Under the pieces are notes generated by a model, which was not told the origin of the DNA, did no database searches, and worked only from the letters and a program-made list of their open reading frames with translations. This document shows positions 17,424-30,472 of a stretch of DNA of 35,752 nt, piece after piece. The first letter of the stretch is position 1. Each line of letters opens with the position of its first letter. A program made the position numbers and the translations under genes. The stretch is taken from the IMG/VR virus record IMGVR_UViG_3300044949_000822, positions 1 to 35,752 of that record, one strand, 5' to 3'. Origin of the DNA: a virus (lineage: Duplodnaviria; Caudoviricetes).

Positions 17424-18365
17424 TCATCTCGGCTTGCCCGGCCCAGCCCCCGGCCTGTCTTCGGGCCGCTGCGTGATGTCTGGCAGGTAGTCGAGGTTGC
17501 TTTCCCTGCCCGTTATCTCCTCGTCGTAATAGTGGGTTTCGGCCATTTCTTCGCTGCTATGCCCCAGCTGTTTCTTGGCTGAGATTCCGGCCCGTTTCAG
17601 ATAACTCGCTGTGCTTTTCCGAATTGAATGAAACGGGTGGTATGGCACCCCAGCTGTGCGACACAGCACACGCAGGCTGCCGTAGATGGACAGGAACTCA
17701 CGATCCTCCACCCAAGGCCACACACGCTCGCTAGGGGCCCCTCGCTGCATGGCCAGCATCTTGGCCAGTTCCGGCGTGATCGCCCGCGTAATCGTCTCTC
17801 TGTGCCCTTTGCGGGTGGCAGCCAGAAACGTGAGCGTGTGCTGCTCCAGATCCACCTCTGACCACCGGAGCTCGAGCACAGCACCGATGCGCTCGCCCGT
17901 CTGAAACATGGCGAGAATCTTGGTGACCCAGTACCAGGCCGCTGGCTTGCCCGCTACGGTGCCTTTCCTGTGCCTGGCGGTATCGACAAGCCTGGCAAGC
18001 TCCTCGGCCCTGAAGGCCTTCGGGACGGGCTTAGGGACGCGAGGCCGGGCGTAGTCTGGGAACTCGACCAGTTCGCCGTCAGACCGTTTCCAGCGTTTCT
18101 TGGCCAGCCACGTCCACAAGCTACGCAGGTGGGCGGAATCTTTGGCCAGCGAGGCTGGCGAAATCTTTTTGTAGCGGCTGTGCTGGGTGGCCTGCCGCCA
18201 CCGCAGGAACTTTGCGGCCGTTAAATCATCGAGATCGTCCACCGTGGGCTCATGCCCCAGGTAGTCGCGGAACCTGTCTAGGCTGCTCAGGTACATCACC
18301 ACCGAGCGGTCAGAGAGCCCTTTGAGCGGGGCTACTCGGTCAATCAGCAAATCCCTCAAAGTCAT
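17424..18365 (-). CDS. int: Tyrosine recombinase / phage integrase
   Basis: TGERIGAV (R), RKG (K), HSIR (HxxR), LGH and HYY (Y) catalytic set; SAM-like N-terminal domain; GGGAGG RBS. Confidence 0.92.
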   Translation of the reverse strand: MTLRDLLIDRVAPLKGLSDRSVVMYLSSLDRFRDYLGHEPTVDDLDDLTAAKFLRWRQATQHSRYKKISPASLAKDSAHLRSLWTWLAKKRWKRSDGELVEFPDYARPRVPKPVPKAFRAEELARLVDTARHRKGTVAGKPAAWYWVTKILAMFQTGERIGAVLELRWSEVDLEQHTLTFLAATRKGHRETITRAITPELAKMLAMQRGAPSERVWPWVEDREFLSIYGSLRVLCRTAGVPYHPFHSIRKSTASYLKRAGISAKKQLGHSSEEMAETHYYDEEITGRESNLDYLPDITQRPEDRPGAGPGKPR

Positions 18366-24115: not shown

Positions 24116-24360
24116 CGCTCTCGGATTTCGTCTGGTTGGCAATAGGCGAAACACTTCTCGCGGGCACTTTCGCTCTCGGGATCTTGGTTGGTGTGTCTCT
24201 TAATCGAAAGGGCCAAAGGAATGGCAACTGCAACACGGGAACGGAAGACGAGTGGAATCACACTGGCAACGTCAACGCTACGGGCGGCACTTGCCGACGT
24301 GCTCAGGGCTGTGCCGGCACGGCACGCGAAGCCCATCCTGGCCAACGTCCGGCTAGGTGA
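24112..24360 (+). CDS. Hypothetical membrane peptide overlapping the clamp gene start
   Basis: GGAG RBS, ATGA coupling, N-terminal hydrophobic helix; overlaps the next gene by about 140 nt. Confidence 0.45.
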   Translation: MTLSDFVWLAIGETLLAGTFALGILVGVSLNRKGQRNGNCNTGTEDEWNHTGNVNATGGTCRRAQGCAGTAREAHPGQRPAR

Positions 24361-25339
24361 CGGGCTGCTGACGGGCACGGATCTCGAGGTGCGAATCGAC
24401 CGCGAGATCGACTACCACGGCGACGCTATGCTGCTGCCGGCTCATCGGCTCAGCGCCATCATGCGGGCCGCGACCGGCGACGAGGTGTTTCTAATACCAA
24501 AGGAAAGCAGCGTCACGGTGAAGTGTGGCGCTGGCTCGTGGACGCTGCCAACTGAGGACGCTGCAGAGTTCCCGACGTGGGACGCTGGCGATCTGAAGGC
24601 AATCTGCCGCCTGCCGGCGGACCAGTTCTGCCGGGCCGCTAAGGCCACGATCTACGCCACGGACAGCGAGAGCAGCCGCTACGCACTTGGTGGCGTGATG
24701 CTGGACGTTGAGCCCACTACGGACGGCTCGCGGCAGCACTGGGTTGGGACTGACGGTCGCCGGCTCGCGTGCGTTGAGACTGAAAGTGACGATGCCCTGT
24801 CTGAGTCGCAGACGGTCCTGCCCGGACGCCTGGTGTCGCTCGTGGCCAGTCTCGCTGCTGGTGACGGCTCAGTGCAGGTTGAGGCTGACGCCAAGGAAGT
24901 GCGCTTCTCGCTGGACGGCTGCACCATCTCGGGCCGGCTTATGGAAGGACGTTTTCCGAAGTGGCGTGACGTGCTCGGTGAGCCGGAAGGCGAGCCAACG
25001 GTGATCGACGTGGTGGAGTTGCTCCAGGCGGTGCAGTCTGCGGCCATCGTCACCAGTGAGCAGTCCAAGGGCATCAGCCTGACGTGGACGGCCAACACGC
25101 TGGTGCTCGTGGGCCGCTCGAGCGAGTACGGGGAAAGCAAGGTCATCTGCCCGACGATCGCGGCTGGCTCGACGGCGAGCACCAAGCTGGACCCAAAGTT
25201 TCTGGCCCAGTTCCTAGCGAACCTGCCGCAGGACGAAGAGCCGCACGTTGACGTGTACGTGGCCGATGCCCAGAGCCGCGTGCTACTACGCTGCGGCCCG
25301 TACACGGGCGTCATCATGCCGCTTGCGGAGGATGCCTGA
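24221..25339 (+). CDS. dnaN: DNA polymerase III beta sliding clamp homologue
   Basis: KPILANV, GTDLEV, AAEFP, SRYALGGV, GTDGRRLA, RLMEGRFPKWRDV, VIMPL. Confidence 0.92.
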   Translation: MATATRERKTSGITLATSTLRAALADVLRAVPARHAKPILANVRLGDGLLTGTDLEVRIDREIDYHGDAMLLPAHRLSAIMRAATGDEVFLIPKESSVTVKCGAGSWTLPTEDAAEFPTWDAGDLKAICRLPADQFCRAAKATIYATDSESSRYALGGVMLDVEPTTDGSRQHWVGTDGRRLACVETESDDALSESQTVLPGRLVSLVASLAAGDGSVQVEADAKEVRFSLDGCTISGRLMEGRFPKWRDVLGEPEGEPTVIDVVELLQAVQSAAIVTSEQSKGISLTWTANTLVLVGRSSEYGESKVICPTIAAGSTASTKLDPKFLAQFLANLPQDEEPHVDVYVADAQSRVLLRCGPYTGVIMPLAEDA

Positions 25340-25746: not shown

Positions 25747-25835
25747 AGAGAACACGGAAGATCAGCGGCTCCCGGCCACTGACGTAGAATCACCAAAAGG
25801 CGGCACCGGGAGTCCGCTGCATCCGTTGGTTCTCA
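25747..25835 (-). repeat. attC-like site 1 (89 bp)
   Basis: Minus strand: TGAGAAC-CAACG-GATGCAGC...GCTGATC-TTCCGT-GTTCTCT. Confidence 0.85.
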
Positions 25836-25847
25836 CAGGAGAAAAAG

Positions 25848-25970
25848 ATGAGCTCTTGGAATGCGCAGTATTTGCTCGGAGTCGTGATTGGTTCGGTTCT
25901 GGTTTCGGTCGTTTCGTGTGCCGTTAGGCTGCTGATTCACAGGGGCCGACCTAAATCATGTCGTATGTGA
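25848..25970 (+). CDS. 40-aa membrane peptide in cassette 1 (below the ORF-track cut-off)
   Basis: AGGAG RBS; MSSWNAQYLLGVVIGSVLVSVVSCAVRLLIHRGRPKSCRM. Confidence 0.55.
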   Translation: MSSWNAQYLLGVVIGSVLVSVVSCAVRLLIHRGRPKSCRM

Positions 25971-26206
25971 TACGAAAAATGCCCAACGAAATGCCTTGGT
26001 ATGCGTGGTTTTCCCTTGCCGTGCTCATCCCGGCGTCGTTCTTTGGGTCGGCTTGGTTGATGCACTGGGCAACAGGAGCTGACCCGCTGGTTGAGGAGAT
26101 ATGGCGGCTGCGTGGGCAGAACTCGGTGCTGCGGGAGCGGCTTGAGCAACTGGAGGGCGAGCGGCGGCGCGATTCCGAGACGCTTCGCAAGGTGATCGGG
26201 AAGTGA
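25958..26206 (+). CDS. Membrane-anchored coiled-coil protein in cassette 1
   Basis: Transmembrane segment then heptad-rich tail; stop lies in the core box of attC2. Confidence 0.65.
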   Translation: MSYVIRKMPNEMPWYAWFSLAVLIPASFFGSAWLMHWATGADPLVEEIWRLRGQNSVLRERLEQLEGERRRDSETLRKVIGK

Positions 26207-26292
26207 GAACGCTAAGGATCAGCGGCAGCGATGAAAGGACTCACCATGCGTAAGGACGATGCAACGCTGTCCGCTGCATCCGTTGGTTAGGC
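26204..26292 (-). repeat. attC-like site 2 (89 bp)
   Basis: Minus strand: GCCTAAC-CAACG-GATGCAGC...GCTGATC-CTTAGC-GTTCTCA. Confidence 0.85.
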
Positions 26293-26747
26293 ATCTCATG
26301 GCTGACTTTGACAACAACCGATTCCAAAGCAAAAGCGTTGAGTGGGCAACGCCGCAACAACTATTTGCCGTGCTAAATGACGAGTTTGGCTTTACGCTTG
26401 ACGTTGCCGCGAGCCGCGAAAATGCAAAATGCGGCCGATACTTCACGGCAGAGAATGATGCGCTGCGGCAGGATTGGGACGGAACGTGCTGGATGAATCC
26501 TCCATACGGAAGGGAGGTTCCGAGGTGGTTGGAGAAAGCCATCGCGGAATCAAAGCGTGGCGTCACGACTGTGTGCCTGATACCAGCGAGGACAAACACG
26601 GGTTGGTTTCACGAGTTGTGTTTTCGCCAGGGCGAAGTTCGTTTTGTGCGAGGTCGCCCAAAGTTTGGGGACGCCGACCACGGGCTGCCATTTCCGCTGG
26701 CGGTTGTGATCTATCGGCCGAGATACCAGACGGTTCAGATCGCCTAA
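26259..26747 (+). CDS. dam: Phage DNA N6-adenine methyltransferase, cassette 2 (start 26259 within attC2, or 26298)
   Basis: EWATP, FTLDVAA, DALRQDW, WMNPPY, LIPARTNT.WF, RGRPKFG. Confidence 0.9.
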   Translation: MQRCPLHPLVRHLMADFDNNRFQSKSVEWATPQQLFAVLNDEFGFTLDVAASRENAKCGRYFTAENDALRQDWDGTCWMNPPYGREVPRWLEKAIAESKRGVTTVCLIPARTNTGWFHELCFRQGEVRFVRGRPKFGDADHGLPFPLAVVIYRPRYQTVQIA

Positions 26748-26830
26748 CACGGAAGATCAACGGCGGCCGCCGCAGGACTCACCATGACACATGACGAAGC
26801 AGGGCCGTCCGTTGCATCGGCTGGTTATGC
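26742..26830 (-). repeat. attC-like site 3 (89 bp)
   Basis: Minus strand: GCATAAC-CAGCC-GATGCAAC...GTTGATC-TTCCGT-GTTAGGC, with a compensatory G-C to A-T change in the L arms. Confidence 0.87.
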
Positions 26831-27359
26831 CGCGTACCGCTGCATCTTGATTGACCCTCCGTGGCCACAAGGGATGACAGGAAGCCGGAAGCGAGCGAAA
26901 GGCGGATCGCCTCCCGAGTTGCCATATCCGACTATGACGCTAGAGCAGATGATTCGACTTCCGGTGAAAGCACTGGGGGCTGACGACTCCCACTTGTGGC
27001 TCTGGACAACGAACCAGTTTCTTGAGGATGGGTTTATCCTCATGCGGGCGTGGGGCTTCAAGTACCTTGCGGCCGTTCACGCGATCAAGCCAAGCGGAAT
27101 CGGAAACTACTTCATCAGCAGGACGCAAACGCTGCTGTTTGGCTACAAGCACAAGTGCCGGTTCCCGCTGGAGCGATACAAGCCAAACGTGATCGAAGTA
27201 CCAGACCCGCCTCGACACAGTGCGAAGTGGGACGAGACATACGACTACATCGAGGCGATCTCGCCTGGGCCAAGGCTGGAACTGTTTGCCCGGCGGAAGC
27301 GGCCGGGGTGGGACGTTTGGGGCAACGAGGTTTCTTCGGATATTGACCTAGTGGCATAA
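26784..27359 (+). CDS. MT-A70-family adenine methyltransferase, cassette 3
   Basis: ILIDPPW, YPTMT, HLWLWTTN, AWGFKY, HSAK, RLELFAR..RPGWDVWGNE. Confidence 0.92.
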   Translation: MTHDEAGPSVASAGYAAYRCILIDPPWPQGMTGSRKRAKGGSPPELPYPTMTLEQMIRLPVKALGADDSHLWLWTTNQFLEDGFILMRAWGFKYLAAVHAIKPSGIGNYFISRTQTLLFGYKHKCRFPLERYKPNVIEVPDPPRHSAKWDETYDYIEAISPGPRLELFARRKRPGWDVWGNEVSSDIDLVA

Positions 27360-27443
27360 CGCCAGAGATCAGCGGCCCGCGACCGCTGACGAAACTACAA
27401 CCAGACGGCGGCATCGCGGGCCCGCTGCATCGCGTGGTTAGCT
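27354..27443 (-). repeat. attC-like site 4 (90 bp)
   Basis: Minus strand: AGCTAAC-CACGC-GATGCAGC...GCTGATC-TCTGGC-GTTATGC. Confidence 0.87.
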
Positions 27444-27448
27444 GTCGC

Positions 27449-27853
27449 ATGAGAGACGAAGAAGAATCGAAGGAAAACTTTGCTGCAGAAGCCGAGTACG
27501 TAGCCGAACTGGAGAAACGAGCCAAAGAGGCAGTCCTCCAGGCGAAGGTGCTGATCGGCATGCGAGACGAGGCGTGCAAGAACATGGTGGAGCGGCGGAT
27601 TTACGACATCGCAGGAGACTTCCCGTCTCGCTCAAAACCGGTTGAGTGCGTGTTTCATTTTGCGGAGGGCGACGAAGAAGTTCGGATTGAAGATGTTCGG
27701 CTTCCGTGGCGGTACGGCGGTGGAGAGGCGTTGCACTTTAGGTCGCCAGTGGTGGTTTATCGCTCTAAGCTAAAGAGCGGGAAGTGGTCAAAGACGGTGG
27801 CCGAAGTGGACGCGATGTGGGCAATCACGCAGATTGAAAAGTACACCAGCTAA
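27449..27853 (+). CDS. Hypothetical protein, cassette 4 (start 27434 or 27449)
   Basis: Fills the cassette; TAA stop is part of the CAGCTAAC core. Confidence 0.7.
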   Translation: MRDEEESKENFAAEAEYVAELEKRAKEAVLQAKVLIGMRDEACKNMVERRIYDIAGDFPSRSKPVECVFHFAEGDEEVRIEDVRLPWRYGGGEALHFRSPVVVYRSKLKSGKWSKTVAEVDAMWAITQIEKYTS

Positions 27854-27984
27854 CCAGTAAGTATGCGGACCCGTATATCCGCCACCGCTGGCCATATATC
27901 TCCAAGCCGTCAGCGCCGTGCAGCCGCTAGCCGCAAGCTTGTCGCGCTAACGCGGATTATCTGCCGCATATCTCGCAGTCGTGT
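27848..27984 (-). repeat. Degenerate attC or attI-like primary site at the head of the array
   Basis: Minus strand: ACACGAC-TGCGA-GATATGCG...CGCATAC-TTACTG-GTTAGCT; spacing kept but AAC is replaced by GAC. Confidence 0.5.
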
Positions 27985-28428: not shown

Positions 28429-28827
28429 TTGGCCGTCACGTTCTCAGTCGCAGGGCAGCCCGTCCCACAGCCGAGGCCGAGAGTCTCGACTGCGGGCGGG
28501 TTTGCTCGTGCGTACGTGCCAGGAAAGCACCCAGTGCATGCGTACCGCGAGGCTATCGCAGCAGCTGCTCGAGGTGCTGGGCTCACGACAACAGGCGACG
28601 TGCTGAACGTGGTGATAGATGCGGTGTTTGAGCGGCCTAAGTCGCATATACGAAAGGCCGGCGTGAAACCCGACGCACCGAAGTTGCCCAGGCCCGACGT
28701 GGACAACATCGCCAAGGCGGTGCTCGACGCACTGCAGGACGTGATGGGCGATGACTCTCTGGTTGGCCGATTGGTGGTGGAAAAGTCATACGGCCAGGAG
28801 GCACGGACTACCGTGCGAGTGTCGTGA
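28429..28827 (+). CDS. rusA: RusA-family Holliday junction resolvase
   Basis: PVPQPRPR, RPDVDNIAKAVLDAL...DDSLV...K.YG. Confidence 0.9.
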   Translation: MAVTFSVAGQPVPQPRPRVSTAGGFARAYVPGKHPVHAYREAIAAAARGAGLTTTGDVLNVVIDAVFERPKSHIRKAGVKPDAPKLPRPDVDNIAKAVLDALQDVMGDDSLVGRLVVEKSYGQEARTTVRVS

Positions 28828-29594
28828 GCACTGTGGCCGTAGTCATCCCTACGTGGAACATGGCCAACACACTTGGTCGGGCTCTTGGCTCGGCGTGCGT
28901 TGGCGGTGCCGATGAGATTGTCGTGGTGGACGATGCCAGCACTGACGCCACTTACAGCGTCGTGCAGCAATGGCAGAAGAGCCATCCGCATGTGCAGTAC
29001 GTGCGGCATCCTGAGAAATCGAAGGATCACAACGCAGCCCAGCGTGATGTGTGGCTATCGCTAAAAAGCAATCACGTCATCGGCCTGGCTGCCGATGACT
29101 GGCTTTACCCGTCTGCCGTTGAAGCCGTACGCCGCAATGCTCATTCGCCTGTGGTGTTCACGGACGCAGACGCCTTTGACGAGCAAGGCCGATTCATTCA
29201 CTGGCACATGAGCGAGTTCTACGGCTACAAATCCGCCAGTGAAGTGAGGCAACGAGTTTGTGGGCCGTCTAATCTGATTGAGAGCGGCATAGGCTCGTCA
29301 CTACGCCGAGATATGGTGCAGTGGCTGTGGATGATGGGATGGGATTCGCTTGGACCGCTCATGGATAGCGTCGGTTATGGCACCGTCGCGTGCTTGTTCG
29401 GTGCCACCTACGTGCAATGCAAGGGCGCTGGGCTCACTGTGCGCGAACGAAGCTACGGGCGAAACCCCGATTGGACTGAGAACGACTACCGCAAGATGGG
29501 AATGCACGCTGTGGCGTGGATGGATTACGCGGGGCTAGACCGCGAGACGATTAGGGTCATGGCCCGCAAGCGTTGCTGCTTGGAGGTGGCATGA
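28824..29594 (+). CDS. Glycosyltransferase family 2
   Basis: VAVVIPTWN, EIVVVDDASTD, LAADD. Confidence 0.85.
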   Translation: MSTVAVVIPTWNMANTLGRALGSACVGGADEIVVVDDASTDATYSVVQQWQKSHPHVQYVRHPEKSKDHNAAQRDVWLSLKSNHVIGLAADDWLYPSAVEAVRRNAHSPVVFTDADAFDEQGRFIHWHMSEFYGYKSASEVRQRVCGPSNLIESGIGSSLRRDMVQWLWMMGWDSLGPLMDSVGYGTVACLFGATYVQCKGAGLTVRERSYGRNPDWTENDYRKMGMHAVAWMDYAGLDRETIRVMARKRCCLEVA

Positions 29595-30472
29595 TTATCC
29601 CCGCACGATTTTGGCAGCCTGACGAGCCGTTTACTGATAACTACCTTCAGCGTGCAGAAGAAGGCCTGGCCCGGTTGCGAAACTCAAAGGTTGCTTTCGT
29701 TGGGCTGGCCCGAAACTGTGCCGTGCGACTCGCCCAGAACCTTGGCCTGCTCGAGCAGCTGCAGGATTTGTGCGGCTCGTGGTCGCTGCACATTGAGAGC
29801 AACGACTGCACTGACGCCACGCTGGACGTGCTGCACGACTACTGCCGCGAGAAGCCGCAGGCCACGTTTCACTATCAGATTCTGGGCCGCGAGCAGCACG
29901 GCGCAGAGTTCGCCGGCCGTCGCACGATCGCCCTGGCCGAGTACCGCGACTCTTGCCAGCGGTGGGTGCGTGCGTGCTCGCCTGACGCCGACTACGTGTG
30001 CGTCATCGACTGGGATGCGTGGGGAGGCTGGAACACCAACGGCTTGCTGAACGGGCTCGGCTGGCTCGTGGAGTTGCCGGGTGCGTACGGCATGGCCAGC
30101 ACGTCGCTCTTTCAGTACGACTTCGGACATGGGCCGTCGTGGCACCACTATGACTTGTGGGCCCTGCGTGGCGTTGGGCAGGCCGATTGCTACTTCGACA
30201 CGTACCAGAGCGGCTACGGGGGCTTCGGCTACACATGGCTGCCGCCGGTTGGCTCGCCGCCTGTGCTCGTCTCGTCTGCGTTTGGGGGCATGTGCATCTA
30301 CCGCACCGACGCATATCTGAAGGGAACGTATGACGGCGTGAGAGACTGCGAGCACGTTCCGTTCCATCAGAGCATTGCGCGAGCGACGGGCCAGCACCTG
30401 TATTTAAACCCGTCGCAGCGGACGCTGATGAGTTGGATGCCTGAGCCATGCGCGGAATCACCTCAACCATAA
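29591..30472 (+). CDS. GT-A glycosyltransferase-like protein (CAP59-like pattern)
   Basis: GLARN, ESNDCTDAT, LAEYR, VIDWD, VSSAFGGMCIY, DCEHVPFH. Confidence 0.72.
   Translation: MIIPARFWQPDEPFTDNYLQRAEEGLARLRNSKVAFVGLARNCAVRLAQNLGLLEQLQDLCGSWSLHIESNDCTDATLDVLHDYCREKPQATFHYQILGREQHGAEFAGRRTIALAEYRDSCQRWVRACSPDADYVCVIDWDAWGGWNTNGLLNGLGWLVELPGAYGMASTSLFQYDFGHGPSWHHYDLWALRGVGQADCYFDTYQSGYGGFGYTWLPPVGSPPVLVSSAFGGMCIYRTDAYLKGTYDGVRDCEHVPFHQSIARATGQHLYLNPSQRTLMSWMPEPCAESPQP

Follow-up and report, generated by a model that had tools for sequence, protein, structure and literature searches.

In models of integrons, the attC site follows its gene and mostly hinders translation downstream. The viral DNA analysed here (Caudoviricetes; IMG/VR record IMGVR_UViG_3300044949_000822, 35,752 nucleotides, referred to as the window) carries four attC sites with genes in the reverse arrangement, and a preliminary description proposed that such a site encodes the ribosome-binding site (RBS) and the N-terminus of the protein of its own cassette. 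The locus raises the question of whether an attC site can supply the start of a gene. We consider it probable that the array consists of four integron-type cassettes with reversed genes, each attC standing before its own gene, and that the loop of attC3 serves as RBS and start codon of an MT-A70 methyltransferase.

The phage and its cassette array

The window has the appearance of a complete temperate siphophage of the HK97 type, with genes for terminase, portal, protease, capsid, a tyrosine integrase, RecT, DnaN, RusA, and HNH. The integrase does not match the integron integrase model TIGR02249 at E<=0.01, and the 56 window ORFs scanned include no further tyrosine recombinase. The window does not hold the intI of a complete integron, and its array is a CALIN (at least two attC sites, no nearby intI). 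We infer a planctomycete host because the site-arm pattern mostly matches contigs of Planctomycetota, with at least 132 genome stretches among the matches listed. In lake-water metagenome runs, 9 of 24 rows hold at least half of the region's words, and 5 of these 9 are possible sources. Annotated GenBank phages gave no match to attC3, and the array region matched nothing in G001, the closest virus record. A known RNA family for the region was considered and rejected, as Rfam gave a single chance-level match (E 0.85).

The four attC sites, of 89-90 nt each, span 25747-27443 and are flanked by an HTH gene on one side and a conserved end site on the other. The gene for the DNA polymerase III beta clamp (24188-25339) immediately precedes the HTH gene and the array and is kept in relatives. 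Past RusA, 28824-30472 holds a glycosyltransferase family 2 gene and unknown ORFs. The features are as follows.

17424..18365, minus strand: tyrosine integrase of phage type (PF00589), not an integron integrase
25747..25835, minus strand (the classical top strand being minus): attC1, ATG-less loop type
25848-25970 and 25958-26206, plus strand: cassette 1 ORFs of 40 aa (own AGGAG) and 82 aa
26204..26292, minus strand: attC2, loop with AGGA (26236-26239) and ATG 26246 on the plus strand
26246..26290, plus strand: loop-initiated ORF of 14 aa, MRKDDATLSAASVG, ending at a TAG in the right R box
26298..26747 (most likely start 26298), plus strand: Dam-family N6-adenine methyltransferase (PF05869)
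26742..26830, minus strand: attC3, loop with AGGA (26774-26777) and ATG 26784 on the plus strand
26784..27359, plus strand: MT-A70 methyltransferase of 191 aa (PF05063 over residues 18-182)
27354..27443, minus strand: attC4, ATG-less loop type, kept in a variant without cassettes 1-3
27449..27853, plus strand: cassette 4 gene of 134 aa, no family, stop TAA in the terminal R box
27848..27872, minus strand: conserved terminal site, candidate attI-like anchor of the array (putative function)

All four attC sites have paired R boxes with AAC/GTT and complementary flanks. Their L boxes show a 6+5 spacer, 3 bp, an extra base, 6 bp, and another extra base, and the central spacer is unpaired. Each cassette runs from attC through the gene to its stop. 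The cassette bodies begin with GTTNNNN and end with its complement, and the gene stops in the next AAC box: the TGA of the 82-aa ORF lies within the R box of attC2, the TAA of Dam in that of attC3, and the TAA of MT-A70 in that of attC4. Complementary 7-bp ends are present in all three bounded cassettes and, by sequence, likewise in cassette 4, whose start is complementary to the R box of the terminal site. The MT-A70 cassette is predicted at 26748-27359. In classical cassettes the gene is on the top strand of attC, with attC 3' of it; here the genes are on the bottom strand. The array is a real, non-chance feature and, judged from sequence, a variant of integron cassette architecture that comparisons with relatives support well.

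The two ORFs of cassette 1 (25836-26209) overlap. The 82-aa ORF has no Pfam family, and neither ORF has an NCBIfam family above cut-off; close copies of the longer one adjoin other attC sites in L006, L012, L027, L060, and L066. The Dam protein matches TIGR01712 just under the cut-off.

Polarity and cassette ownership

The anatomy of the sites is that of chromosomal attC sites of Planctomycetota, with the recombining strand predicted to be the coding strand. When the sites are read on the plus strand, their extra bases lie on the right arm. The same anatomy is found in L370 and L373, two planctomycete arrays beside intI, in which the cassette ORFs are mostly on the opposite strand. The first extra-helical base of the bottom strand is a C, like that of the IntI-linked planctomycete sites and unlike G16 of VCR, oxa2, and aadA7. 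Passages of Nivina 2016 (PMC5027507) place cleavage in the AAC of the bottom strand. It follows that the plus strand of the window is the bottom strand and that each gene goes with the attC on its left.

A natural variant points the same way. Contigs in three of four runs examined (X10, X12, and X14) join 25750 to 27358 with an ambiguity within AAC, a junction at the assembly level whose short side comprises just 39 letters in a common loop type. The variant is without cassettes 1-3, and gene 4 is still accompanied by attC4. In X12 and X14 the HTH gene and cassette 4 have a coverage of 13-15, which falls to 0-3 across most of Dam and MT-A70. A crossover in the bottom-strand AAC, as minus-strand polarity predicts, is thus found as a natural assembly junction. 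The minus-strand polarity assumed in the preliminary description is supported by the anatomy of IntI-linked arrays and by three independent lines of observation: this junction, the position of the end site on the right, and a small comparison of cassette pairs given below.

Among single cassettes, 50 of 56 viral ones have their longer ORF on the bottom strand of attC, and 29 of 39 from bacterial genomes have it on the top strand; this test covers ATG-to-stop ORFs in complementary-ended cassettes only (56 of 82 viral, 39 of 79 genomic) and counts the loop ATG itself. It replaced a first test based on the longest stop-free run (30 bottom, 23 top, and 29 unclear, n=82), because the latter was uninformative at the GC content of the window. 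A reversed attC with RBS and ATG in its loop is common among related viral cassettes and rare in bacterial sites of the same family.

The terminal site

The motif of the end site recurs in 34 viral stretches (L375-L408). Among 31 distinct loci, attC sites are found to its left in 26 and to its right in none, and its R box complements the nearest detected attC in 12 of 18 cases. The end site is conserved, has attC sites on one side only, and varies in its R box; its layout was set beside the L-box, 5-bp, R-box layout of attI. The end site is a candidate attI-like anchor of the array on these sequence features. The content of the locus varies: relatives carry four other cassettes (L348) or one or two (L388, L393, and L405-L407) at the same place, and in some no cassette was detected there. 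Some relatives (L024/L379 and L381-L383) have an 11-bp inverted copy of the end-site motif approximately 100 nt downstream. The last cassettes before the end site in L388, L393, and L405 have attC-like sites of approximately 57 nt that are almost loopless, and the genes after them have their own RBS.

The start of the MT-A70 gene

The preliminary description noticed that the loops of attC2 and attC3 share AGGACTCACCATG. This was confirmed: it occurs in the window only at 26236-26248 and 26774-26786, and shuffled sequences contained a mean of 0.07 copies at no more than one mismatch, reaching two in 1 of 100 shuffles. In attC3 the motif places AGGA, then 6 nt, then ATG 26784, which opens 191 aa starting MTHDEAGPSVASAGYAAYRCILIDPPW; this distance is in the range of 4-10 nt taken for a Shine-Dalgarno (SD) sequence, and the frame of the ATG is open into the gene. 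The right arm of attC3 codes for residues 1-15 of the protein. As had been stated, the gene has no other in-frame ATG before its DPPW motif, and 26784 is alone after the in-frame TAA at 26745. The other in-frame candidates (ATC 26844, TTG 26847, and ATT 26850) all fall within the first strand, which is conserved. Alignments to the Pfam model and to solved chains of the MT-A70 family begin at residue 18, so the strand before DPPW is needed, and ATG 26784 is the sole ATG able to supply it. A start past 26830 had been named as evidence against the loop start; no SD-preceded start was found between 26830 and DPPW.

Homologues carrying the same N-terminus outside cassettes had likewise been named as contrary evidence. 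The best 120 of 1358 homologues were compared, of which 115 contain DPPW. An SVASAG-type peptide, the arm peptide of the window, is present in 2 of these 115, and the tag heads unrelated proteins. Of the same 115, 74 start within 15 residues of DPPW, where the window gene has no ATG, and 14 carry other peptides, which were classed as attC arms read in different frames by means of patterns drawn up by hand. The DNA upstream of MT-A70 relatives contains attC-like sites in L278 and L307 and, by eye, in L267 and L269. The MT-A70 N-termini of P0025, P0028, P0043, L269, L278, and L307 resemble arms of non-planctomycete attC types. The inverted design may span several host groups, as these sequences suggest.

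Starts in the loops of related sites

Relatives were gathered as 128 viral stretches, collected with an arms-only pattern, of about 200 existing. Of 183 unique viral sites, 122 have an SD and ATG in the loop when the coding strand is read, and none has them on the other strand; the corresponding numbers in bacterial genomes are 9 and 5 of 171, and in all these comparisons the sites share the ancestry of a few loop families and are not independent, so that Fisher p values overstate certainty. Several of the nine bacterial loops resemble phage loops by eye. A single-linkage cluster takes in 177 of 187 sites, and the loop types are few and related. They were typed by regular expressions, as single linkage failed to separate them, with 57 of 174 rows falling under 'other'. 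The site counts are lower bounds, because the strict finder missed visible attC-like sites (L267, L269) and short sites (L388, L393, L405).

The downstream sequences of at least 290 nt comprise 174 distinct ones, the window counted in, and 113 of them follow a loop with an SD-ATG. One frame is common to 109 of the 113, despite offsets of -37, -40, -45/-46, -52, -55, or similar, and a stop before GTT is found in none. The frame stays open for at least 60 codons in 96 of 113 cases, compared with 49 of 226 for the other frames; counted once per gene cluster, the numbers are 82 of 96 and 37 of 192. Eight of the 113 frames close within 40 codons, attC2 of the window included. Early-closing exceptions are also seen in L003 945, L017, and L114; L017 and L114 have the same gene behind two loop types, with its own ATG in another frame, and one L003 body looks tRNA-like by eye.

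The remaining loops behave differently. An SD and start of the body's own are found behind 15 of 113 SD-ATG loops and 24 of 45 ATG-less loops, and an ATG lies within 45 nt in 39 of these 45. Genes behind ATG-less loops bring their own start, as far as their sequences tell. The loops of attC1 and attC4 are of one ATG-less type. The two loop subfamilies described earlier are thus present in the window, and more than two types exist among relatives.

The peptides encoded by the loops head unrelated proteins. When 39 tagged proteins were scanned, 7 had a Pfam family (two N4/N6 methylases, a C5 methylase, a HAD hydrolase, a recombinase, and two DUF551) and 32 had none. In the C5 methylase the match to the Pfam model starts at residue 19, and no other Met occurs between the loop start and that residue. 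The proposal that the attC loop provides RBS, start, and N-terminus of its own gene is supported for attC3 and for most of the SD-bearing relatives.

The Dam gene behind attC2

The situation of Dam is different. As described earlier, ATG 26246 in the loop of attC2 opens a 14-aa ORF; it ends at TAG 26288-26290, 7 nt before ATG 26298. An additional ATG at 26231, without SD, shares this frame. Initiation signals are present in attC2, and the frame stops at 26290. An ATG of the 26246 type is found in all 18 loops of the attC2 type and opens at least 60 aa in 14 of them. The Dam cassette is an exception, as its R box puts a TAG into the main frame. Among 13 bodies that start with GTTAG, and thereby have a stop in this frame, attC2 of the window alone has a main-frame start in its loop.

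The preliminary description also pointed to ATG 26259, preceded by AAGGA. This ATG is indeed in frame with Dam and would give 162 aa; as a start it is poorly supported, and AAGGA is only 2 nt away from it. The idea that attC2 provides the N-terminus of Dam is not supported by the relatives. The conserved MADFD, which begins at 26298, is the start in six of seven Dam relatives; several of them are free-standing, and three have a purine-rich RBS directly upstream. Most likely, Dam starts at 26298, behind the 14-aa loop ORF. On our analysis it is likelier that attC2 gives Dam a short leader ORF with re-initiation, similar to ORF-11, than an N-terminus.

RNA fold and the N-terminal tag

The predicted attC RNA stem has approximately -38 kcal/mol. 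In the predicted folds of 113 sites, the L-box stem is 8% unpaired, and the SD and AUG are approximately 55% unpaired. The weakly paired zone extends from approximately -16 to +19 around the AUG, which is close to the footprint of the 30S subunit. The AUG of attC3 itself is predicted to be mostly paired (0.15 unpaired), and the SD sequences of the window loops are AGGA only.

Selection on the amino acids of the tag was considered and rejected, as substitutions are near neutral (41 synonymous, 107 non-synonymous). Over 97 distinct tag segments, stops are absent from the ATG frame and number 79 and 86 in the other two. Given this near-neutral drift in a frame kept free of stops, the tag is a by-product of the site. 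A stop-like triplet is present in the left R box of 108 of 174 sites.

Alternative explanations

A classical plus-strand polarity would assign each gene to the attC on its right, and the loop start would be lent by the upstream cassette. The genes do stop in the following AAC box as in classical cassettes, the complementarity of the 7-bp ends is compatible with both polarities, and some genes are found behind different loop types (8 of 21 multi-member gene clusters). This polarity is nevertheless highly improbable, as IntI-linked arrays have matching extra-helical bases and spacers when read in the opposite direction, the natural junction falls in AAC and leaves attC4 with gene 4, and the end site is on the right. 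Co-segregation agrees: of six cassette pairs, three share an identical left site and differ at the right one, one points in the opposite direction, and two are uninformative, although this test is small and underpowered (p 0.6). It is almost as improbable that a few attC families merely happen to have inherited an SD and ATG in their loops, the genes starting elsewhere (MT-A70 at TTG 26847) or remaining unexpressed. The small number of loop families, the near-neutral peptide changes, and the weakness of AGGA as an SD speak for such an accident. However, several loop types place the ATG at differing offsets in one frame, this frame remains open in 82 of 96 gene clusters, and the strands differ by 122 to 0. 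Furthermore, TTG 26847 has no SD and would delete the first strand of the MT-A70 fold, whose model begins at residue 18.

Two further readings concern how the loops are used. Translation of Dam from ATG 26259 as a 162-aa fusion would be in frame and open; in the Dam cassette a TAG closes the main frame opened by the loop ATG, and 26298 is preceded by a mere weak AGG. With AAGGA so close to the ATG and MADFD as the conserved start of the relatives, we regard the fusion as distinctly unlikely; moreover, an ATG of this type is found in 8 of the 18 loops of the attC2 type and is mostly followed by short out-of-frame ORFs. A regulatory role of the mRNA hairpin, as a switch tying translation to an upstream ribosome or a signal, is somewhat less doubtful, though still unlikely. 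The strong stem around SD and AUG and the stop-like triplets in the left R box are consistent with it, and class 1 integron attC hairpins affect downstream translation, as stated in passages of PMC8876359. On the other hand, the role in DNA recombination already explains the stem, the SD and AUG are in its weakly paired part, and no ligand or alternative fold was found. A switch and a start in the loop are not mutually exclusive.

Proposed explanation and its meaning

In the preferred explanation, starts in the loops of inverted cassettes, a host IntI, probably of a planctomycete, would recombine the folded coding strand. Cassettes would be added at the attI-like end site or excised by attC x attC recombination. 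The transcript of the phage operon would run through the array. The upstream gene would stop in the left R box, after which a 30S subunit could load on the SD and AUG in the weakly paired loop of approximately 35 nt; the terminating ribosome would melt the left arm, probably aiding this loading. Translation would then pass the right arm and yield a near-neutral tag of 13-19 residues. In the case of Dam, the loop ORF ends in the R box and likely hands its ribosomes to ATG 26298. Downstream of ATG-less loops, genes would use their own start.

If the attC site supplies the start, each cassette would be expressed from the phage operon at any position in the array. A broader view is conceivable, and we hold it only tentatively: a phage cassette economy running on the host integrase, with an attI-like site and inverted cassettes in which attC is RBS, start, and tag, locked in frame. 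The array suggests that phages use the IntI of their hosts to exchange accessory genes, among them methyltransferases that likely protect against restriction. If the broader view is true, an attC loop could make an expressed, mobile cassette out of any coding sequence truncated at its 5' end, which would be a testable route to cassette genesis and bears on how cassettes acquire attC sites. Phage cassettes landing in a host integron would stay silent from Pc. The arrangement would also explain the odd N-terminal extensions of many phage proteins and imply errors in annotated start sites.

Comparison with known systems

The closest counterparts of the sites are the sedentary chromosomal integrons of Planctomycetota (L370, L373), which share length, R boxes, spacers, the two extra-helical bases, and arm sequences. 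In contrast to these integrons, the phage genes are on the opposite strand and the phage has no intI. A loop SD and ATG also separate phage sites (122/183) from those of bacterial genomes (9/171).

The main text of Qi et al. 2023 (PMC9892861) describes phage attC clusters that lack an integron integrase; some of them contain DNA methyltransferase cassettes, and their sites recombine with IntI1. The window resembles these phage CALINs in lacking an integron integrase and in its methyltransferase cassettes. Unlike the window, the arrays presented there have the typical structure, with one case of divergent attC sites, and the words 'ribosom', 'start codon', and 'upstream' are absent from that main text. 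No description of inverted phage cassettes with starts in attC was found in the literature searched, which covered few subscription papers.

Recombination sites with translation signals are known from class 1 integrons. Passages of PMC8876359 on Hanau-Bercot 2002 and Jacquier 2009 describe short ORFs located in attC, as well as ORF-11 and ORF-17 of attI1. The 14-aa ORF that precedes Dam would act like ORF-11. The sites described in these passages, however, belong to the platform or to the upstream cassette and are read on the top strand, whereas in the cassettes considered here the gene's own attC is read on the bottom strand and is usually fused in frame. Cassettes outside integrons are also seen in SALINs, in which, according to portions of a preprint (bioRxiv 10.1101/2022.09.11.507474), IntI places cassettes at attG and a resident promoter expresses them if they carry an RBS. 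The array of the window differs from SALINs in that it ends at a conserved, dedicated site and has the RBS inside attC.
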